Assembly: GCA_021323775.1 (NCBI GenBank) | Contig: JAJPKK010000155.1 | Span: 9,080-73,079 of the forward strand | Length of the DNA stretch: 64,000 bases | Direction of reading: 5' to 3' | Source: Hyphomicrobiales bacterium | GTDB lineage: Bacteria; Pseudomonadota; Alphaproteobacteria; Rhizobiales; Xanthobacteraceae | In this document: one piece after another, positions 24,690-45,468 of the stretch | Numbering within the stretch: position 1 is the stretch's first letter | Layout of the letters: the number at the start of each line of letters is the position of its first letter | Translations under genes and position numbers: made by a program | The notes under the pieces: model-generated | The model's database searches: none | Told to the model about the DNA's origin: nothing | The model's input: only the letters and a program-made list of their open reading frames with translations

Positions 24690-24962
24690 TCGAAGCATTC
24701 CTCCCTGCCGGCCTTGGCAGCCGGCTGACGTCCTGCCATGCCGGTCCGGGCGCGAAGCGCGGCAGGCGGGATATATCTGTTTATAGTACAGTCGCCGCCG
24801 CGATTGCCAATAGCCTCCTTTGCATGAGCACAATGCTGTGCGCCTGCCGATCGACTCCGGCATCGGCAATGTCGGAACGCCAGTGTCGTCAGGAGCCTTC
24901 CGTGCTTGCCAACCGCATTGCAAACCGGTTTGTTGCCTCCCGCAAACCGAGAGGGACGACCA

Positions 24963-25880
24963 ATGGCAAGCTACAGGCTGGTGACATATGCGGGCGCTGA
25001 CGGTCCGCGTGCCGGACTGCTGATCGGAGATGAGGTGTGTGACGCCGAAAAGCTGACCGGACACGCGGCCGATCGCAGCGTGTTGGCCATTTTGCAGGAC
25101 TGGGGGGCGGCGCGCGACCGACTTGCCAAGGCCGCGGCCTCGCCGGCCGGCGGTCAGACGCTTGCCGAAACGAAACTATTGGCCCCGGTCTTATGGCCAT
25201 CCGCGATCTATTGCGCTGGAGCGAATTACGCCGACCATGCCGCCGAGATGGCGCGCGCGAGCGGGCGCACCCCCGAGCCGGACCCTCATACGCTCGGCTT
25301 GAAGCCCTGGCACTTCCTTAAGGCCGGGCGCAGCACCCTCGCGGCTCACGGCGACACGGTGCAGATCACGGGCGTTTCCAAGACAATGGATTGGGAGATC
25401 GAGCTCGCCGCGGTGATCGGGTTTGCCGCCAAGGACGTGCCGCTCGCCAAAGCGCTTGATTATGTGGCCGGCTACACCATCGCGAACGACCTCTCGGCGC
25501 GCGACCTGGGACGCCGCCCCCACGTACCCGACGCCGCGCCCTTCAAATTCGACTGGGTGGCGCACAAGAATTTCGACGGATCGTGCCCCCTCGGGCCGTG
25601 GATCGTGCCCAGTCGCGACATCCCGGATCCGCAGCAGCTTGGCCTCAAGCTGTGGGTCAATGACGTTATCAAGCAAGAGTCCCACACAAGCCAGATGATC
25701 TTCACCCTCGCCGAGCAGATTGCGCACCTGTCCTCGCGCATCACCTTACAGCCTGGCGACGTGATCCTCACCGGAACGCCGGCCGGCGTCGGCGCTGCGC
25801 GGGGCGAATTCCTCAAATCCGGCGACGTGGTCAAGCTGTGGATCGAGAAGATCGGCGCGCTCATGAACCGCATGGCGTGA
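24963..25880 (+). CDS. fumarylacetoacetate hydrolase (FAH) family protein
   Basis: ORF trimmed to MASYRLVTY. FAH-type motifs DWEIELAAVIG and GDVILTGTPAGVG. Confidence 0.85.
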   Translation: MASYRLVTYAGADGPRAGLLIGDEVCDAEKLTGHAADRSVLAILQDWGAARDRLAKAAASPAGGQTLAETKLLAPVLWPSAIYCAGANYADHAAEMARASGRTPEPDPHTLGLKPWHFLKAGRSTLAAHGDTVQITGVSKTMDWEIELAAVIGFAAKDVPLAKALDYVAGYTIANDLSARDLGRRPHVPDAAPFKFDWVAHKNFDGSCPLGPWIVPSRDIPDPQQLGLKLWVNDVIKQESHTSQMIFTLAEQIAHLSSRITLQPGDVILTGTPAGVGAARGEFLKSGDVVKLWIEKIGALMNRMA

Positions 25881-32032: not shown

Positions 32033-32413
32033 TCAAGCGCCGGTCTTCGAGACAAACGTCACGCCCGGCAACCCGCGGAAGTGCGCGTCGCAGGTCAGCA
32101 GGTCGGCTTTATATTCCAAGGCCGTGGCGTAAACAACGGCATCCGCTGTCGCAAGCTTGTGCTTGCTGCATATCTCCGCCGCCGCCAGTGCGATCTTCGT
32201 ATCGAGCGGCACAACAGAACATTTCAGCGTGAAAGCGATCACCTGATCGGCTTTGTCCTCGCCGACTTCGCGAGCGAGCCACTTCGCCAGTTCAAGTTGC
32301 ACGATGGTTGGGACGAGCCAGCCCGCCCGTGCAGGTATCGCGACGTCAACGGATTTCCCCGTCGGCGATGCGATCAACCACTCGATCCATGCAGACGTAT
32401 CGACGAGCCGCAT
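32033..32413 (-). CDS. vapC: type II toxin VapC (PIN-domain ribonuclease)
   Basis: ORF trimmed to MRLVDTSAWIEWL. PIN acidic residues are in the DTS, ..LE.., ..TADAVV.. and ..LLTCDAHF contexts. Overlaps the vapB stop by 1 nt (TGATG). Confidence 0.85.
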   Translation of the reverse strand: MRLVDTSAWIEWLIASPTGKSVDVAIPARAGWLVPTIVQLELAKWLAREVGEDKADQVIAFTLKCSVVPLDTKIALAAAEICSKHKLATADAVVYATALEYKADLLTCDAHFRGLPGVTFVSKTGA

Positions 32414-32631
32414 CAGAAACGGTCGTTGCGATCGCGGTAGTCCTCCGCCTTCGCGCCTTTGGCGATACCGGCGAGGTCTTTGCGCTCCGGCACCGGAACC
32501 AGGAGCACGCCCGTTCCCTTGGGAATGAACGCAAACTCCTGGCCCGCTTTCCACTTGCGGGCGTCGCGCACCGCCTTGGGGATCGAAATCTGGAATTTCG
32601 CCGAAAGCGTCGCCGTATCGGGCATAGTCAT
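32413..32631 (-). CDS. vapB: AbrB/SpoVT-family antitoxin VapB
   Basis: LSAKFQISIPKAVRDARKWKAGQEFAFIPKG is a SpoVT/AbrB-like swapped-hairpin motif. 72 aa, immediately upstream of vapC. Confidence 0.8.
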   Translation of the reverse strand: MTMPDTATLSAKFQISIPKAVRDARKWKAGQEFAFIPKGTGVLLVPVPERKDLAGIAKGAKAEDYRDRNDRF

Positions 32632-32842: not shown

Positions 32843-35800
32843 ATGAGCGTGGCAACCGCAAAGTTTTCCGTCATCTTGTGGAGCTTCGCCCAATTGATGA
32901 AGCTGCAGGCGCGCCGGTACGAGACATTTCGCCAGCGCCTGCGCGAGCGCAATCTCGTGGCGCAGATCAAGGCGCGCGATGAGGAGATTGGGCGCTGGTT
33001 CGAAGTGCGCAACGGCAAGGTGAGATCGGGCGCTGGGTTTCACAGGGCCCCTGACATCACGCTTGCATTCAAGGATGCAGCGCTTGGCGCGTCGCTCCTG
33101 ACGCCGCCGATCAACTGGCTCGATCAGATCAACGCCCAGAAGGATTTCAAGCTCACGGTCGACGGCCCCGATGATCTCACCAATTGGTGGGCTCAGACCA
33201 TGATGGCGAGCATGACGGCCGGTTGGAGGTTCGGCACACAGCTCGCCGACGGCGCCATGCGCTATTGCAACATGACCAACGGCGGCCCGGTCTTCGTCTA
33301 TGTCAAAGACGGCAAGATCGTCCGCATGACGCCGATCGAATTCGACTCTACCGATCCGCAGCCGTGGACCATTCAGGCGCGCGGCCTCAAGCTGACGCCG
33401 CCGCGCAAGACGACGCTCGCGCCGCACGGGCAGAACGCGAAATCGATTGTGTACTCGCCGGACCGCCTCCTCCATCCGATGAAGCGGGTCGACTTCGATC
33501 CCAATGGCAGCCGCAACCCGCATAACCGCGGCAAATCCGGCTATGTGCGCATTTCGTGGGATGAGGCGCTCGACCTCGTCGCTTGCGAGATCAAGCGGCT
33601 CAAGAGCACCTATGGGCCCGGCGTGATGGCGGTGTCGCACGGCTCACATCATACCTGGGGCAATATCGGCTACTATCTCTCGGCCCTGCATCGCTTCCGC
33701 AATGCGGTCGGTTATACCCAGGTGCACCATAATCCCGATAGCTGGGAGGGATGGTATTGGGGCGCGGTGCATCACTGGGGCTACACGCTGCGCGTCGGCC
33801 AGTCCGAGACCTACGGCACTGTCGAGGACTGCCTGCAGAACTGCGACATGATCGTGTTCTGGGCGGCGGACCCCGAAACGACGAGCGGCTCCTACGGAGC
33901 GCAGGAGGGCACTGTCCGCCGCCAGTGGCTCAAGAACCCCAAGCTCGGCATCAAGGTGGTTCACGTCGATCCATATTACAACGCGTCGGCGCAATTCCTC
34001 CCCGGCAAATGGCTTGCGCCGCGGCCGACCACCTCGGTCGCCATGGCGATGGCGATCGCCTATGTGTGGATCAAGGAAAACCTCTACGACAAGGAATATG
34101 TCCGCACGCACACGGTCGGTTTCGATGCGTGGAAAGACTATCTCCTCGGCGTTGAGGACGGTGTCCCCAAGACTCCGGAATGGCAGGAAACGGAGACCGG
34201 CGTTCCGGCAAAGGACGTGCGCGCGCTGGCCCGCGAGTGGGGTAGGAAGCGCGTGTACCTCGCGCCCGGCGGCTGGGGCAACGGCCATGGCGGCGCCTGC
34301 CGCAATCAGACCGGCATCCAATGGGCGCGCGTCATGGTGTGCCTCATCGCCATGCAGGGGCTCGGCAAGCCCGGCGTCAACATGGGCAATCTGCAATGGG
34401 GCTGTCCGCTCGACTTTAATTTCTATTTTCCGGGCTATGCTGACGGCGGCATGTCGGGCGATCTCGAAAACACCTCGATGCCGGTCGAGCTTTATCAGCG
34501 CATGCCGCAACTGCCGACCATTTCGTCGACGTTCCAGCGCATCCCGCGCATCTGGATGCCGGAGGCAATCGCGGACGGCAAGGCCGAGGGCTACGCCTGG
34601 GTCGGCAAGTCGATCGAGCACCAGTTCGCGAAATTCACCTACCCGGCGCCGGGCCATGCGCCTGTGAAGATGCTCTACAAGTACGGCGGCTCGATGCTGT
34701 CCACCATGAACAACACCAACCGCCATGTGCGGATGTATCAATCCGAGAACCTCGAATTTGTCGTCAACCAGTCGATCTGGTTCGAGGGCGAGGCGAAATT
34801 CGCCGACGTCATCCTGCCGGCCTGCACCAATTTCGAGCGCGTCGACATCAGCGAATGGGCAGGGCTCGGCGGTTATGGCCACCACGGTCAGCAGCAGCTC
34901 AACCATCGCGTCATCGTGTTCCAGGCGCCTGCGATCGCGCCGCTCGGAGAATCGAAATCCGACTATTGGATATTTACGGAGATCTGCAAGCGGCTCGGCC
35001 TCGCCAATTATTTCAACGAGGGGATGAATGAGATCGACTGGGTCAAGCGGCTGTTCGACGCTTCCGACCTGCCCAAGCACATATCCTGGAAGGAGTTCAT
35101 CCGCCGGGGCTACTTTGTGGTGCCGGCCGAGAAGGAGAAGCTGCGCGCGCCGGTGTCCTTCCGCTGGTTCTGGGAAAATCGCAAGAAAGACGTTCCCGAG
35201 GCTCATCCGTTGCCGTCCGACTATGCGCGGGAATTTCAGCGCGGTCTGCAGACGCAGTCCGGCAAGCTCGAATTCGAGTGCAACAGCCTCAAGCGTTTCA
35301 GCGACCCCGAACGGCCGCCGATCGTGAGATACGAGGCATCATGGGAGGGGCGGCACTCGGGCGCGACGTTCGACCGCTATCCGCTTCAGCTCCTGACGCC
35401 GCATTCGAAATACTCGTTCCACACCCAGGGCGACGGCAAGGATTCGTTCCTTCTCAACATCGCTGACCACCGCGTCAACGTGAATGGCTATTACTACTGG
35501 GTGCTGCGCCTCAACGCGAAGGATGCGGCCGAGCGCGGCATCAAGAAGAACGATCTCGTGAAAGTCTTCAACGACCGCGGCGCCGTCATCTGCGCCGCGC
35601 TGCCGACCGAGCGCCTCGCCCGCGGCGTCTGCCATGGCTACGAGTCGTCGGCCGTATACGATCCGATGGGCGAGCCGGGGAAGTCGGTCGATCGCGGCGG
35701 CTGCCTCAATCTGCTGACACCGGAACGCACGCAGACCAAGTCCACCCATTCGCTGGCAGGCGCAAACGCGTTGGTGCAAGTCGAGTTGTGGGACGGCCGC

Positions 35801-35893
35801 ACGGAGCACGTGTCGGCGGTATTTGCCGAGATGGAGAAGGGCCAGGAGGTCAAGCGCATGCTTGATGCGGCGAGCCTGGTGCCGGCGAAGTGA
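32843..35893 (+). CDS. molybdopterin (bis-MGD) oxidoreductase alpha subunit, pyrogallol transhydroxylase/resorcinol hydroxylase-like, with an N-terminal SCP2-like extension
   Basis: SD GAGGAGGAG lies 4 nt upstream of the ATG. The core from about aa 143 ([21 protein letters not shown].., [39 protein letters not shown]) matches my recollection of Pelobacter AthL. There is no twin-arginine signal and no N-terminal Cys cluster. Residues 1-140 are high-GC3 coding and look SCP2-like. Confidence 0.85.
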
Positions 35894-35894
35894 T

Positions 35895-35927
35895 CTTCTC
35901 CCTCCCTCGCAAGCGGGGGGGGGAGAA
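35895..35927. repeat. REP family A hairpin between alpha and beta subunit genes
   Basis: cttctccctccctcgcaagcgggggggggagaag, a near-perfect palindrome. Confidence 0.65.
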
Positions 35928-35987
35928 GCAAAGGGACCGGTCTCCGTGACGCTCGATCCGGCATTCTGTGCTGTTCAGGGTGAGCAA

Positions 35988-36827
35988 ATGTCCAAATGGA
36001 ACATGATCATCGATGTCGCCGAGTGCACCAATTGCCAACTTTGCACGCTCGCCACCATGGACGAGTACGTCGGCAATGATTTCCCTGGCTATGCGGCGGC
36101 GATGCCGAAGCACGGCCATCGGTGGATCGATATCCTCCAGAAGGAGCGCGGTCAGGCGCCGATGATCGACATCGCTTACGTTCCAACCATGTGCAACCAT
36201 TGCGATGATGCGCCGTGCATCAAGGCCGCGAAGCACGGCGCGATCACGAAGCGCGATGACGGCATTGTCATCATCGATCCGGTCAAGGCCAAAGGGCAGA
36301 AGCAACTCATCGATGCGTGCCCGTATGGCCATATCTGGTGGAACGAAGAGCTGCAGCTGCCGCAGCACTGGCCGTTCGACGCGCATCTCATCGACCAGGG
36401 CTGGAAAGAGACCCGCGGCCAGCAGTCATGTCCGACCGGCGCGATGCGGGCCATCAAGGTGGACGATGCCGAAATGGCGCGGATGGTGCGTGAAGAAGGT
36501 CTGGAAGTCCTCGGAGAGGACCTGGGCACAAAGCCGCGGGTCTACTATCGCAACCTGTGGCGCTACACGAAATGCTTCATCGGCGGCACGGTTTCGGCCG
36601 AGGCGAACGGCGTCGTAGATTGCGTCGAAGGGGCATGCGTCCGGCTCATCAAATCCGGCGCCGTCATCGCTGAGACCACGAGCGACAATTACGGCGACTT
36701 CAAATTCGACAGGCTCGATGAGCATTCCGGGGCCTATACGGTCGAAATCGAGGCGAAAGGCCGGCCAGGCAAATCCGTCGAGACGCGCCTTGGCGTCAGC
36801 GTCAATCTGGGCGAGATCAGGCTGTAG
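35988..36827 (+). CDS. 4Fe-4S ferredoxin-type beta subunit (BthL-like) with C-terminal Ig-like domain
   Basis: ORF trimmed to MSKWNMIIDVAECTNCQLC. Also CNHCDDAPC, DACPYG, SCPTGA. C-terminal region PRVYYRNLWRY..GDFKFDRLD..YTVEIEAKG. Confidence 0.85.
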   Translation: MSKWNMIIDVAECTNCQLCTLATMDEYVGNDFPGYAAAMPKHGHRWIDILQKERGQAPMIDIAYVPTMCNHCDDAPCIKAAKHGAITKRDDGIVIIDPVKAKGQKQLIDACPYGHIWWNEELQLPQHWPFDAHLIDQGWKETRGQQSCPTGAMRAIKVDDAEMARMVREEGLEVLGEDLGTKPRVYYRNLWRYTKCFIGGTVSAEANGVVDCVEGACVRLIKSGAVIAETTSDNYGDFKFDRLDEHSGAYTVEIEAKGRPGKSVETRLGVSVNLGEIRL

Positions 36828-36829
36828 CA

Positions 36830-37309
36830 ATGCCGGAGCCGACGCCGCTCATCGCTCCGGCTCTGGCCAATGCATACGGAGCGCTTGCCCCGGTCGCGGA
36901 AGCGCTGCTTCGCGCCGTCGTCGGCCTTGCTCTCGTACCTCACGGGCTGCGCATGACCTTCGGCTGGTTCGCCGGCACCGGCCTCAAGGTCAATAGCCTG
37001 CAAGCTTTGGCCGCGCAGCTCGATCAAACCGGCTACCGTCCGGGCTTTCTATGGGCGCCGGCAATCTCGGCCACCGAACTCGTCTGCGGACCGCTCCTCG
37101 CTCTCGGCTTGTTCACGCGGCCGGCCGCACTGCCGGTCTTCATCTTCCTCGCGGTATCGAACGTCGAGCGGTGGCGGGTGGGCGGCTATTTCTGGAATAC
37201 GCTCGGTCTCGAATACACCCTTTTGTGGACGGTCGCGGCGTTCTATTTCCTTGTTCACGGCGGCGGCGCTTACTCGCTTGATCATTTTTTGATCGGTTGG
37301 GAGGTTTGA
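36830..37309 (+). CDS. DoxX family membrane protein
   Basis: ATG is 2 nt after the beta-subunit stop. Four hydrophobic helices; LVPHGLRM..ELVCGPLLALGLFTRPAA..GGGAYSLD is typical of DoxX. Confidence 0.8.
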   Translation: MPEPTPLIAPALANAYGALAPVAEALLRAVVGLALVPHGLRMTFGWFAGTGLKVNSLQALAAQLDQTGYRPGFLWAPAISATELVCGPLLALGLFTRPAALPVFIFLAVSNVERWRVGGYFWNTLGLEYTLLWTVAAFYFLVHGGGAYSLDHFLIGWEV

Positions 37310-37323
37310 CATTTCGGGTCGCC

Positions 37324-37369
37324 GCCCCCTCCCTACCCTCCCGGCCTGCGAAGCAGGATAGGGAAGGAT
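37324..37369. repeat. REP family A-like unit
   Basis: ccccctccctaccctcccggcctgcgaagcaggatagggaagga. Confidence 0.5.
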
Positions 37370-39637: not shown

Positions 39638-39740
39638 TTCCCCCCGCTTGCGGCGGAGGGTCGGGGAGGGGCGCTTGCCACGAGTCGGCGCCATGGTTCG
39701 CCCCTCCCTGACCCTCCCTCGCAAGCGGGGGGAGGGGACC
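39638..39740. repeat. composite of two inverted REP family A units (about 100-bp hairpin)
   Basis: ccccccgcttgcggcggagggtcggggaggggcg .. cgcccctccctgaccctccctcgcaagcggggggagggg. Confidence 0.7.
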
Positions 39741-39785: not shown

Positions 39786-40436
39786 ATGATCCGGCTATTC
39801 TCGTTCTGGCGCTCGCTCGCGACCTATCGGGTGCGCGTCGCGCTCAATCTCAAGGGGCTGACGCCGGATGACGAGATCGAAGTCAACCTGATGAAGGGCG
39901 CGCAGCGCGCGGCCGCTTACCGCGCCGTCAATCCCATGATGGCGCTGCCGGCGCTCATCGACGGCGAAGCGCCCGTCCTGTTCGAATCCCTCGCCATTAT
40001 CGAGTATCTCGATGAAACGCGCCCCGACCCGCCGCTGTTGCCGAAGGACGCACGCGGCCGGGCGCGGGTGCGCGGCCTCGCCCAGATCGTGGCGTGCGAT
40101 TGTCATCCGCTCATCGTGCCGCGCGTGCGCGAATACCTGGAGCACGAACTCAAGATCGACGAGCCCGCCCGTATGGAATGGTGCCGCCATTGGCACGTGC
40201 AGGCGCTGGCCGCGCTCGAACTCCACCTTGGCTCACAGGAAACAGGTCGCTTTTGCCATGGCGACCAGGTGACGATCGCAGACATCTGTCTCGCCAGCCA
40301 GGCGGCGGGCGCCAGGCTCTTCGGCGCCGACATCGCGCCGTTCGTGAACGTCGCCCGTATCGTGGAGACTTGCCACCGGATCGACGCTTTCGCCCGCGCC
40401 CACCCGCTCCGCCAGCCCGGCGCTCCGGCGACATGA
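39786..40436 (+). CDS. maiA: maleylacetoacetate isomerase (zeta-class GST)
   Basis: LFSFWRSLATYRVRVALNLKGL .. NPMMALPALIDGE..LFESLAIIEYLDE. Confidence 0.85.
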   Translation: MIRLFSFWRSLATYRVRVALNLKGLTPDDEIEVNLMKGAQRAAAYRAVNPMMALPALIDGEAPVLFESLAIIEYLDETRPDPPLLPKDARGRARVRGLAQIVACDCHPLIVPRVREYLEHELKIDEPARMEWCRHWHVQALAALELHLGSQETGRFCHGDQVTIADICLASQAAGARLFGADIAPFVNVARIVETCHRIDAFARAHPLRQPGAPAT

Positions 40437-42137: not shown

Positions 42138-43532
42138 ATGAGCGCATCATCGGCGACGCGTTCGATGCCGGCGGATCGCTTCATCGTTCCTCTGCAGGCC
42201 CCCTGCGCGAATGATGAATCGCGGGTTGGGCCGAAGGCCGCCAATCTTGCGGCGCTTGCTCGTGCCGGCCTGCCCACGGCGGGCGGCTTTTGTCTAACGG
42301 CTGATGCCTATCTGGCGCAGCTCACGGCGCTCGGCCTCGATGATGCAGTCGCGCAGTTCGCGGCCGCGGATCCGCGCGGGCAGCGGAGGCTCTCGGTCGA
42401 CATCAGGCTGGCGCTCTACGAACAGCCGATCGTGACCGAGATTCTTGAGCCTCTGCGCGACGCCTGGCATGCGCAGCGCGCCGCAAGCGGCAAGCCCTGC
42501 GCCGTACGCTCCTCCGCGCTAATCGAGGACCGTAGGGGTGCGAACTTTGCCGGCCAGTTCGAGAGCTTTCTCGGCATCGACGACGAAGGCGCATTTCTCA
42601 CTGCGGTTCGCGCCTGCTGGGCGGCCCTTTGGACCACCAATGCGCGGCGCTACATGGACAATCATGGTTTAAGCCCCGCCGATACCGCGATGGCGGTGCT
42701 GATCCAGCCGCTCATCGATGCCCGCGCTTCTGGCGGAGGGTTAAGCGAAAACGCCGAAGGCCAGATGCTGCTCAGCGCCGCCTGGGGGCTCGGTTCCGCG
42801 ATCGCCCAAGGCGAAGTCGTGCCCGACCGCATCGTGCTCACGCGTCAGGGTTTCCTGCGGACCAATGAAGCCGGTCGCAAGCATCACGCCGACATTTGTC
42901 GCCATGGCGCGAACGGGGATACCAGCAGCGGCGACCGCGTTGCACCGCAGGCGATGCCGCGCGAGCTTGTGGAAAAGCCGTGCCTTAACGCGGGCCAAGC
43001 GGTTCAACTCGGCCGGCTGCTGCGCAAGGCTGAGGCGGCGCTGGGCATGCCGGTCGAGATCGAGTGGGCGCTCGATGAAACCGGCTTCACGCTGCTTCAG
43101 GCGCGCCCGCTGCCCCTGCCCCTTCCCTCCCCCGCTTGCGGGGCAGGGTTAGGGAAGGGGGCGGCAGAGCGTAGAGCGGGCGCAGCGCCCGACGAGATCT
43201 GGCTCAAGCACCCCGGCCTCTATGGCCATCCGGCCGGCATCGGCTGGGGCTCGGGCCGCGCCGTGGTGGTGAATTGCGAATGCGAACTCACCCGCATCGC
43301 GCCCGGCGATATCCTGGTGACGCGGGTCGCCGGGCCCGCGCTCGGCCACGTGCTGCCGCGGGTTGCGGGCGTCGTTGCCGAACGCGGCGGTTCGACCTCC
43401 CATCTCGCCTCGCTGGCGCGCGAGCGCGGCATCCCGATGGTGCTTGGCGTGCATGAGGCGACGCGAAAAATTCCTGACGGCGCGCAGGTCGCGGTCGATG
43501 GCGTTACCGGCATCGTGCGGTGGATGGCATGA
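42138..43532 (+). CDS. PEP/pyruvate-binding (PPDK_N ATP-grasp) plus PEP-utiliser mobile His domain protein; no C-terminal catalytic barrel
   Basis: N-terminus VGPKAANLAALARAGLPTAGGFCLT and swivel motif GGSTSHLASLARERGIPMV. 464 aa. An in-frame REP insert sits in the interdomain linker. Confidence 0.8.
   Translation: MSASSATRSMPADRFIVPLQAPCANDESRVGPKAANLAALARAGLPTAGGFCLTADAYLAQLTALGLDDAVAQFAAADPRGQRRLSVDIRLALYEQPIVTEILEPLRDAWHAQRAASGKPCAVRSSALIEDRRGANFAGQFESFLGIDDEGAFLTAVRACWAALWTTNARRYMDNHGLSPADTAMAVLIQPLIDARASGGGLSENAEGQMLLSAAWGLGSAIAQGEVVPDRIVLTRQGFLRTNEAGRKHHADICRHGANGDTSSGDRVAPQAMPRELVEKPCLNAGQAVQLGRLLRKAEAALGMPVEIEWALDETGFTLLQARPLPLPLPSPACGAGLGKGAAERRAGAAPDEIWLKHPGLYGHPAGIGWGSGRAVVVNCECELTRIAPGDILVTRVAGPALGHVLPRVAGVVAERGGSTSHLASLARERGIPMVLGVHEATRKIPDGAQVAVDGVTGIVRWMA
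43110..43162. repeat. REP family A unit, intragenic (linker of the PEP-utiliser protein)
   Basis: ctgcccctgccccttccctcccccgcttgcggggcagggttagggaagggggc, translated as PLPLPLPSPACGAGLGKGA. Confidence 0.7.
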
Positions 43533-44509
43533 TGACGCGCATTTTTGTCAGCCAGCCAGTGCATGAGAGCGCGCTTGCGCGCCTCACCGCCATCGCGGCC
43601 GTCACGTCAAATCCGGATTCCCGGCAAATCCTCCCCAGGGACCAGCTCATTGCCGGCGTGCGCGGCTGCGATATCCTGTTCAGTCTGTTGCACGACCGGA
43701 TCGATCGCGAGGTGATCGAGGCCAACCCGGACCTGCGCGCCATCGCCTCGATGTCGATCACGCCCGACAATATCGACGTGGCGGCGGCGACGGCGCGGGG
43801 CATTCCCGTGACGGTGGTGCCGGCGCTTGCGGTCGAGTCGACCGCCGATACGCATTTCGCCCTGCTGCTGGCGGTCGCGCGCCGCGTGGTCGAAGGCGAC
43901 CAACTCGTCCGCAGCGGCATCTTTCCGGGCTCCCAGGCGAATTACCTCCTCGGCTCCGGCGTCTACGGCAAGACCATCGGCCTCGTCGGCGGGCGAGGCC
44001 GCATCGGCCGCGCCGTCGCGGCAAGGGCCAAGGGTTTCTCCATGCGCATTCTCTATTGTGGGCCGCATCCGATGGAGAAGGCGGAGGAGGAGGCGCTCGG
44101 CGCCGTCTATGTCCCGCTCGACCGCCTGCTTGCGGAAGCAGATTTTGTTTCGCTTCACCCAAGCCTGACGGACGAAACCCGTCACATGATCGACGCGCGC
44201 GCGCTGGCGCTGATGAAGCCGACTGCGTTCCTGATCAACACGGCCCGCGGCGCCGTCGTCGACGAGGCGGCGCTCGTCGACGCGCTCTCGGAGAAGCGCA
44301 TCGCCGGCGCCGGCCTCGACGTGTTCGAGAACGAGCCGGAAATCAACCCGGCGCTCAGGAAGCTTCCCAACGTGACAATGACGCCGCATTTGGGCAGTGC
44401 GGTCTTCGAGGTGCGCGAGGCCATGGCCAATGCCGTGGTGGACAATATCGTGGCCCTGTTGGAAGGACGGCGGCCGCCGAACATCGTCAATCCTGAGGTG
44501 TTGCCGTGA
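43529..44509 (+). CDS. D-isomer-specific 2-hydroxyacid dehydrogenase (glyoxylate/hydroxypyruvate reductase-like)
   Basis: ATGA overlap with the upstream stop. NAD motif GLVGGRGRIGRAVA; also NTARGAVVDE and the PHLGSA catalytic His context. Confidence 0.85.
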   Translation: MMTRIFVSQPVHESALARLTAIAAVTSNPDSRQILPRDQLIAGVRGCDILFSLLHDRIDREVIEANPDLRAIASMSITPDNIDVAAATARGIPVTVVPALAVESTADTHFALLLAVARRVVEGDQLVRSGIFPGSQANYLLGSGVYGKTIGLVGGRGRIGRAVAARAKGFSMRILYCGPHPMEKAEEEALGAVYVPLDRLLAEADFVSLHPSLTDETRHMIDARALALMKPTAFLINTARGAVVDEAALVDALSEKRIAGAGLDVFENEPEINPALRKLPNVTMTPHLGSAVFEVREAMANAVVDNIVALLEGRRPPNIVNPEVLP

Positions 44510-45468
44510 GCCGCACGCTGATTGCCGTGACCGACAGCCCGTTTCCCTCCCTTGCCCCAGCGGTCGCCGCCCTCGAACGCGTCAATCCCGAACTGCGCAT
44601 GGCAAAATCTGCATCCGCGGAGGACATCCTTGCGGTCGCGCGGGATGCGGACGCGGTGCTGGTCATTTACGCAAAGCTGCCGGGCGAGCTTCTCAGGAAG
44701 TTTACACGCTGCAAGGCGATCGGCCGGTTCGGCCTCGGCGTCGACAACATCGACATCGCGGCGGCAACCGAACTCGGCATCACGGTCACCTATGTGCCAG
44801 ACTATTGCCTGCGCGAGGTCTCTGACCACGCCATGGCGCTCCTGCTCGCGCTCGCGCGCAAGATTGCGTTCTCCAACTCTCTGGTGCAGTCTGGCCGATG
44901 GGAAGTGCCGCCGATTGTCCCGCTGCGCCGGCTTGAGGGCCAGATACTGGGCCTGATCGGATTCGGCAATATCCCACGGGCGCTCGTCCCAAAGGCGAAG
45001 GCGTTCGGGCTCAAGGTCATCACCCACGATCCTTACGTTCCGGCCGATGTGGTGAAAGCGTTCGGCGTCGAGAGCACGAGTTTCGAGGACCTTCTGGCTC
45101 ACTCTGATTTTGTCTCAATCCACGCGCCGCTACTGCCCTCGACCCGCGGACTGATGAATGCCGCTGCATTCGCCAGGATGAAAAAGGGCGCGTTCCTTGT
45201 GAACACCGCTCGCGGCCCGTTGATCGACGAGGCGGCGCTGGTCGCGGCGCTTGACAGCGGACGCCTCGCCGGCGTCGCGCTTGACGTGGTTGCAGCCGAA
45301 CCGCTTGCAGGGGATTCTCCGCTGCTTGGCCGCGGCAACGTCATCCTGACGCCGCACACGGCGTTCTATTCCGTCGAGGCGCTTGAGGAACTGCAAACCA
45401 AATGCGCAAGCGACGTCGCGAGAGTCTTGTCGGGGGAGGCGCCGGTCTATCCGGTGAAGATGGGGTGA
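44506..45468 (+). CDS. D-isomer-specific 2-hydroxyacid dehydrogenase (CtBP-like)
   Basis: GTGA overlap. Contains GLIGFGNIPRAL, NTARGPLIDE and TPHTAFYS. Confidence 0.85.
   Translation: MSRTLIAVTDSPFPSLAPAVAALERVNPELRMAKSASAEDILAVARDADAVLVIYAKLPGELLRKFTRCKAIGRFGLGVDNIDIAAATELGITVTYVPDYCLREVSDHAMALLLALARKIAFSNSLVQSGRWEVPPIVPLRRLEGQILGLIGFGNIPRALVPKAKAFGLKVITHDPYVPADVVKAFGVESTSFEDLLAHSDFVSIHAPLLPSTRGLMNAAAFARMKKGAFLVNTARGPLIDEAALVAALDSGRLAGVALDVVAAEPLAGDSPLLGRGNVILTPHTAFYSVEALEELQTKCASDVARVLSGEAPVYPVKMG

Follow-up and report, generated by a model that had tools for sequence, protein, structure and literature searches.

The pyrogallol-phloroglucinol transhydroxylase AthL/BthL of Pelobacter acidigallici (PDB 4v4c; also PgthAB/PgtL) is a molybdoenzyme of two plain subunits with three [4Fe-4S] clusters and no partner protein; 1,2,3,5-tetrahydroxybenzene is its co-substrate in turning pyrogallol into phloroglucinol. 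The resorcinol hydroxylase RehLS (RhLS) of Aromatoleum (Azoarcus) anaerobium belongs to the same transhydroxylase (TH) family of Mo enzymes and, in an account attributed to Darley and colleagues (2007), is reportedly membrane-associated. The MopB review describes RehLS as cytoplasmic, and in its resorcinol pathway the DoxX/D protein BtdS serves as the membrane subunit of hydroxyhydroquinone dehydrogenase and also sequesters a regulator (PMC10084136). Here we describe an operon at positions 32843-37309 of a 64,000-nucleotide stretch of DNA (the window) from a Hyphomicrobiales bacterium of the Xanthobacteraceae (GenBank assembly GCA_021323775.1, contig JAJPKK010000155.1, positions 9,080 to 73,079), where the open reading frames and their translations define three same-direction genes encoding, in order, a catalytic α subunit, a ferredoxin-type β subunit and a DoxX-family membrane protein. 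AthL/BthL is its closest known system, and the best reading of the sequence is that the operon encodes a Xanthobacteraceae (aerobic Alphaproteobacteria) variant of this enzyme, not the categorically new three-component redox system of the original prediction. Compared with AthL/BthL the window operon has an SCP2 domain on α, two rather than three [4Fe-4S] sites and a dedicated DoxX, and its host is an aerobic soil alphaproteobacterium. We thus do not class it as a plain AthL/BthL ortholog, though it most likely works like one; the SCP2 fusion, the two-cluster β and the dedicated DoxX are new here, while the kind of enzyme itself is already known.

Both subunits are homologous to their AthL/BthL counterparts over the full length. 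Residues 139-986 of α match the large subunit of pyrogallol hydroxytransferase (4v4c_A) with E=1.6e-291, and the family alignment gives 52% identity to AthL over 839 aligned columns, so that the anticipated transhydroxylase-like core is borne out. Pfam assigns the domains AhtL-like_1st, Molybdopterin and Molydop_binding; generic matches are all that Pfam and NCBIfam return for α and β, neither of which has a specific family there. Where other family members have an FS0 Cys-cluster domain, the window α has, as AthL does, the AhtL-like first domain. In the active site D299-S300-W301 align with AthL D174-S175-W176, which puts Ser300 at the Mo-ligand position, and H269, H270, Y277, Y532 and Y678 correspond to AthL H144, H145, Y152, Y404 and Y560. 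These eight residues are specifically common to AthL and the family of SCP2-fused α subunits, and we assume for them the roles given in the 2004 structure paper on AthL. Two other positions differ, AthL R153 and W354 being replaced by Y278 and H482. Both are reportedly substrate contacts; of the other pocket residues reportedly listed by Messerschmidt and colleagues (2004), H144, D174, Y404 and Y560 are kept.

No twin-arginine leader, Sec signal, N-terminal Cys cluster or FS0 cysteine motif was found in α. Its N-terminus is a folded SCP2 helix, its first cysteine is C142 and its sole RR pair lies within a confidently modelled helix of the SCP2 domain, in agreement with the earlier statement that twin-arginine signal and N-terminal cysteines are missing. 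Domains, structure matches and the lack of a leader together uphold the assignment of the α-β pair to the transhydroxylase/resorcinol-hydroxylase family with a cytoplasm-facing location, and α is a cytoplasmic, Ser-ligated Mo-bisMGD (molybdopterin guanine dinucleotide) subunit of the AthL clade. The operon shares its α and β superfamilies, and a three-gene layout of catalytic, ferredoxin and membrane proteins, with DmsABC, PsrABC and NarGHI, from which it differs in lacking the twin-arginine signal, FS0 and an NrfD-, DmsC- or NarI-type anchor and in having two rather than four clusters.

The β subunit matches BthL (4v4c_B) over its full length with E=3.9e-72, the alignment running through residue 273. 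Its Pfam domains are Fer4_11 and a CarboxypepD_reg-like C-terminal domain, and the seven-stranded Ig-like barrel of BthL is kept, so the predicted ferredoxin-type subunit with an Ig-like C-terminus holds. Its description as cysteine-depleted can be made more precise: the depletion is a specific loss that leaves 8 of the 12 BthL cluster ligands. The FS1 ligands (C13, C16, C19, C148) and FS3 ligands (C69, C72, C77, C111) are in place, whereas BthL C23, C126, C129 and C145 have become T23, W128, D131 and G144. In the NarH/FdnH scheme FS2 takes its ligands from motif I (the fourth Cys) and motif IV (the first three), and it sits between FS1, beside the Mo subunit, and FS3. By analogy with this ligation pattern the lost cluster, with all four ligands gone, is FS2, the middle one, so that the wire leading outward from Mo would be interrupted. 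Together with the SCP2-fold domain of α, the loss of one whole β cluster had escaped the original prediction.

The loss is shared across the family. W and D stand at the corresponding positions in 66 of the 67 β subunits from genome loci and in both megaplasmid β subunits checked. The exception, in an anaerobe's metagenome-assembled genome (MAG) of the Desulfobacteraceae (L080, 375-4231), retains all 12 cysteines and is the only family member found to combine an SCP2 domain with a 12-cysteine β, which suggests that the SCP2 fusion is older than the loss of FS2 and that the loss follows aerobic lineages. An SCP2-less sister clade keeps every FS2 ligand. Its β is interrupted by a GltD-like NAD(P)H flavoprotein module, and to judge from its domains this clade is evidently redox-coupled. 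The distribution of FS2 fits a family that would no longer pass electrons along β. In the sister clade, locus L163 (6001-10689; also L164) encodes a TH-like enzyme without SCP2 and with a 740-aa β next to genes for a TRAP transporter, a nitroreductase and an aldehyde:ferredoxin oxidoreductase; such an enzyme may hydroxylate or dehydroxylate polyphenols in an NAD(P)-coupled reaction.

These observations bear on the proposal that the operon encodes a membrane-attached, water-dependent, resorcinol-hydroxylase-like enzyme of three components that delivers Mo electrons to the quinone pool via DoxX, which we regard as unlikely. The RehLS pathway requires net electron transfer, whereas the window β chain is short of one cluster and, without the FS2 ligands, the canonical chain is broken. 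Electrons could still leave from FS1 or via a quinone bound to the SCP2 domain, and redox partner modules do occur in other TH-like clades.

The N-terminus of α is about 140 residues longer than that of AthL, and the modelled extension is an SCP2 α/β fold. The AlphaFold2 (AF2) model of residues 1-145 has a mean pLDDT of 79.8 and a pTM of 0.75, is confident over residues 1-125, and shows a low-confidence linker (about residues 126-147) connecting this domain with the AhtL-like first domain. In a Foldseek search of the PDB the top 33 matches are all SCP2 domains (E from 3e-5, TM score up to 0.70 on the target), among them AF1534 (3bn8), the SCP2 domain of the alkylsulfatase SdsA1, UbiJ-SCP2 and sterol carrier proteins, while the Pfam SCP2 profile (PF02036) remains below threshold for this region (E=0.13; 13 bits against a gathering cut-off of 21.3). 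Of 80 related genome loci, 79 give a match (61-93% identity) that starts among query residues 1 to ~22, the remaining one (L074) being cut by a contig end, and the extension recurs in Ensifer and Burkholderia megaplasmid genes. AthL and the next sister clade (P0123) both lack it. Searched against a database, the N-terminal 140 residues matched fragments of the same fusion only, with no stand-alone or differently fused copies, and no molybdoenzyme with a fused SCP2 domain was found described in the literature searched.

In SdsA1 and UbiJ/UbiT the SCP2 fold is likewise fused to, or works with, an enzyme acting on hydrophobic or quinone-type ligands; the window differs from these in that the fold is fused to a molybdoenzyme and its Pfam similarity is sub-threshold. 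Since the fold is common to ubiquinone-binding UbiJ, it could bring a quinone near α, a point in favor of electron delivery to the quinone pool. It could also bind the tail of a lipophilic phenol: the enzyme would then transfer hydroxyl groups on, or hydroxylate, for instance a prenylated quinol or a lipid of the alkylresorcinol or alkylpyrogallol type, with DoxX acting at the membrane in which this substrate is found. The resemblance of the domain to the substrate-recruiting SCP2 of alkylsulfatases and UbiJ, the substrate-pocket differences from AthL, and the OmpW/FadL-type proteins and acyl-CoA synthetase encoded next to the Ensifer and Burkholderia members all agree with such a role. Attractive as this alternative is in view of the fold, we consider it doubtful: the lipid ligand is putative, no fatty-acid or lipid genes adjoin the operon in the window, and the phloroglucinol-pathway context of other members (see below) implies small soluble phenols.

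The third gene clearly encodes a DoxX protein (PF07681; score 48.9 bits, cut-off 23.6). Hydropathy and AF2 secondary structure give it four long hydrophobic helices, although its AF2 model is poor (pLDDT 62). The DoxD profile scores below threshold (19 against 22.7 bits) and the flanking genes are those for β and mtgA; in the DoxDA thiosulfate:quinone oxidoreductase a DoxD-type protein is joined by DoxA, and here DoxX is paired with β instead. The window protein is 100% identical to one from a Xanthobacteraceae MAG.

Whether the trio is conserved has a divided answer. The forward comparison drew on 60 genome loci, each from a different species, in which β is complete and no less than 1.5 kb of sequence follows it: a DoxX ortholog stands behind β in 19 and does not in the other 41. 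The DoxX-bearing loci form a shallow Xanthobacteraceae-type group in the α tree, interleaved with DoxX-less lineages, and the α-β pairs without DoxX include some that are still 81-84% identical to that of the window. The reverse comparison used 80 metagenome loci picked solely by DoxX similarity (68-89% identity): β lies directly upstream wherever at least about 100 nt of upstream sequence is present, with one exception (L152), and about 50 of them show a 2-nt spacing between β and DoxX. The adjacency persists without downstream mtgA synteny and across three different upstream contexts. DoxX is a dedicated but lineage-restricted, dispensable partner. Being patchy and yet linked to β, it therefore has the profile of an accessory and not of an obligatory electron-accepting subunit. 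Five loci (L004-L006, L041 and L055; e.g. L004 6150-7202) have up to two extra, divergent DoxX paralogues and a MetE-like (Meth_synt_2) gene upstream of α.

The role suggested for DoxX, that of a quinone-coupling anchor, is not supported in view of the family-wide loss of the FS2 ligands and its own absence from the 41 genomes, very close α-β pairs included. Precedent also places the DoxX-type protein elsewhere: RehLS and BtdLS resemble the window in combining a TH-family Mo enzyme with a DoxX/D protein in one pathway of polyphenol/quinone chemistry, whereas there BtdS belongs to hydroxyhydroquinone dehydrogenase, a separate enzyme with its own operon (btdLS), and not to the Mo enzyme (PMC10084136). 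Among the annotated window genes a DoxX is present, and none was identified of btdLS/btdL-, bqd/bqdLMS- or sigma54-regulator type. What keeps electron transfer to the quinone pool under consideration is that DoxX is dedicated and probably translationally coupled, that DoxD-type relatives use quinones and that BtdS works in a membrane hydroquinone dehydrogenase. The point that a DoxX-type anchor would be unlike the classical ones stands, no DoxX-partnered Mo/Fe-S enzyme having been found in the literature searched.

DoxX might also be independent of the Mo enzyme and merely co-expressed with it, acting in quinone or thiol stress protection or in regulator sequestration. BtdS does sequester a regulator, the spacing of DoxX in other loci ranges from -27 nt to 3.1 kb, and extra paralogues lie nearby in some; nonetheless the DoxX orthogroup stands behind β in essentially every case and across different flanking contexts, which makes such independence quite improbable. 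A bolder possibility, and one we hold to be equally improbable, is that SCP2 and DoxX form a new kind of membrane coupling in which DoxX would pass a quinone or quinone-type co-substrate to the SCP2 domain for redox exchange or co-substrate regeneration at or near Mo/FS1, bypassing the truncated β. If this is true, its anchoring and wiring would follow a principle seen in no known Mo/Fe-S/anchor enzyme.

Relatives give an indication of the chemistry. The SCP2-α/β family is large and mostly alphaproteobacterial, abundant in soil and marine Alphaproteobacteria with thousands of database proteins that are usually annotated only as 'molybdopterin-dependent oxidoreductase', and in a neighbor-joining tree AthL is the sister of the whole family. 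Phloroglucinol-type genes adjoin α-β in 16 related loci. Twelve of these, DoxX-less Xanthobacteraceae loci that we call type A, combine α-β with an SDR resembling phloroglucinol reductase (PGR), a cyclase-family protein and a 3-hydroxyacyl-CoA dehydrogenase, and also hold an Amidohydro_2 protein and a TctC-type binding protein; the PGR-like SDR stands immediately before α in four marine loci. The best PDB match of this SDR, by a wide margin, is 5g4k, which (with 5g4l) we take to be the Clostridium phloroglucinol reductase. In the described phloroglucinol pathway the enzymes are PGR (an SDR), DPGC (dihydrophloroglucinol cyclohydrolase, of the cyclase family) and TfD (3-hydroxyacyl-CoA-dehydrogenase-like), and the type A SDR, cyclase and dehydrogenase match these three families (PMC10470551). 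The cluster has been reported in marine alpha- and gammaproteobacteria, Mesorhizobium loti and Bradyrhizobium sp. (PMC10470551), and a 2026 preprint reads the SAR116 homologs as pgthAB. Genes for FAH-family hydrolases recur near α and are adjacent to it in SAR116 and other loci. No resorcinol-cluster genes were found in the contexts of the Magnetospirillum and Burkholderiales members.

Because the DoxX-less relatives adjoin phloroglucinol-pathway genes, redox-neutral transhydroxylation is favored over the water-dependent hydroxylation that had been suggested. SCP2 and the loss of FS2 are found in these DoxX-less members too, a further difficulty for any scheme that ends in the quinone pool.

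Several side observations concern the same related loci. A cupin gene lies between α and β in seven of them (L008, L009, L014 and L037-L040; e.g. L037 11076-11531), often with a LysR gene, two enoyl-CoA hydratase genes and an SDR gene upstream, and in three further loci (L046, L054 and L067) the cupin, of the same cluster, comes after β. In two gammaproteobacterial MAGs a second Mo-enzyme gene, 23% identical to α, is divergently placed upstream (L058 5527-7875; L060 5537-7741, minus strand).

With moderate confidence, then, we regard the operon product as a cytoplasmic transhydroxylase-type enzyme with Ser-ligated Mo that acts on tri- or tetrahydroxybenzenes and exports no electrons via β, the SCP2 domain and DoxX being add-ons for aerobes or the membrane. 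Its reaction at the Mo center would shift a hydroxyl group within a tri- or tetrahydroxybenzene or from one such molecule to another (pyrogallol giving phloroglucinol, or a closely analogous conversion) with no net electron export through β, and the surviving clusters would be structural or serve for activation only. The SCP2 domain might recruit a hydrophobic or amphiphilic ligand or keep the enzyme near the membrane. DoxX would be a lineage-specific accessory rather than a terminal electron acceptor. Most plausibly it would handle, at the membrane and in the way proposed for BtdS, quinone/hydroquinone forms of the very oxygen-sensitive polyphenol substrates or of the co-substrate, and it may tether the complex as well. 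We infer this handling role from the BtdS precedent, and it is offered as the most economical guess.

Certain points weigh against the transhydroxylase assignment. No phloroglucinol-pathway genes are present in the 64-kb window, nor within reach in the DoxX clade. Given the replacement of R153 and W354, the substrate may not be pyrogallol. The more distant Ensifer and Burkholderia megaplasmid members have genes for a VOC dioxygenase, FAH, acyl-CoA synthetase and OmpW/FadL-type proteins as neighbors, a context that suggests that the substrate is another, perhaps hydrophobic one and the route oxidative, and substrates may differ between clades. The middle position of the lost cluster is deduced from the NarH/FdnH ligation pattern and not from distances, and the comparison with RehLS uses its described properties. 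The two megaplasmid loci (L081, Ensifer canadensis pT173c; L082, Burkholderia stagnalis plas2) are those of cultured aerobes and encode SCP2-α/β pairs of about 56% identity, with a TetR regulator gene also adjoining; the strains could serve as hosts for experiments.

If this enzyme lets aerobes transfer hydroxyl groups of polyphenols without oxygen, it matters for how trihydroxybenzenes derived from tannins and flavonoids are turned over in seawater and oxic soils. Its natural lack of one cluster offers a ready test of the long-standing question of what the Fe-S clusters of transhydroxylases do, and the strict β-DoxX linkage gives a tractable route to a biochemical role for the poorly understood DoxX family.

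The gene layout is as originally described: three co-directional genes of the sizes given, with the quoted peptides present (Table 1). The α start is preceded by a good Shine-Dalgarno sequence, the α-β spacer (35894-35987) is 94 bp, and the doxX ATG lies 2 nt past the β TAG, so that DoxX is probably translationally coupled to β. No sigma70-like promoter or convincing terminator was found within the operon.

Table 1. Features of the α-β-DoxX operon and its spacers, in window coordinates.
Feature	Position	Strand	Size or residues	Basis
α subunit, SCP2-fused AthL-like Mo-bisMGD catalytic subunit	32843..35893	+	1016 aa	Open reading frame, Pfam, PDB 4v4c_A
SCP2-fold domain of α	32843..33217	+	aa ~1-125	AF2 model, Foldseek
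AhtL-like first domain of α	33284..33445	+	aa 148-201	PF21423, 93.1 bits vs cut-off 27
Molybdopterin oxidoreductase domain and MGD-binding domain of α	33464..35737	+	aa 208-717 and aa 848-965	Pfam, 4v4c_A alignment
GC-rich hairpin right behind the α stop	35895..35928	+	15-bp stem	RNA fold
β subunit, BthL-like ferredoxin subunit	35988..36827	+	279 aa	Open reading frame, Pfam, 4v4c_B match
DoxX-family membrane protein	36830..37309	+	159 aa	PF07681, four predicted transmembrane helices
REP-like element variant in the DoxX-mtgA spacer, probable operon end	37327..37354	+		Repeat comparison

The hairpin in the α-β spacer had been taken for a repetitive extragenic palindromic (REP) element, and its stem and dispersed copies agree with that. 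A second copy with 2 mismatches lies at 39710-39732, where 0 are expected by chance. The repeat core, CCCTCCCTCGCAAGCGGGGGG, is dispersed, GC-rich and REP-like, and occurs in three intergenic spacers (35895-35928, 39710-39732 and 37327-37354). Because the hairpin is a dispersed repeat the REP label is reasonable and a regulatory role needless. A function as a regulatory attenuator was dropped on this ground and for the variable α-β spacing among relatives, which ranges from gene overlap to ~170 bp and reaches ~840 bp where a cupin gene is inserted; nor was the hairpin called a terminator, as it lacks a T-run.

Downstream of DoxX follows mtgA, encoding a monofunctional transglycosylase, and the surrounding ptsP, prfA, prmC and mtgA are chromosomal housekeeping genes. 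The aromatic-catabolic neighborhood of the original prediction is confirmed in part: two Amidohydro_2 genes, an FAH-family gene (24906-25880) and maiA (39786-40436) are present, and the Rieske protein was not found, no plausible gene in window positions 1-64000 containing a CxH...CxxH motif. Close homologs of the PGR-like SDR, cyclase, 3-hydroxyacyl-CoA dehydrogenase, TctC and cupin of related loci were not found in the window. Directly upstream of α and divergent from it lies a vapBC-type toxin-antitoxin pair (32033-32631, minus strand) whose toxin has a PIN domain and whose antitoxin (32413-32631) is AbrB/SpoVT-like; the Burkholderia stagnalis homolog is also near a similar pair (L082 19745-20385). 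Farther downstream, window positions 42138-45468 hold a truncated phosphoenolpyruvate-synthase-like gene (PPDK_N and mobile domain, 464 aa) followed by two tandem 2-hydroxyacid dehydrogenase genes.

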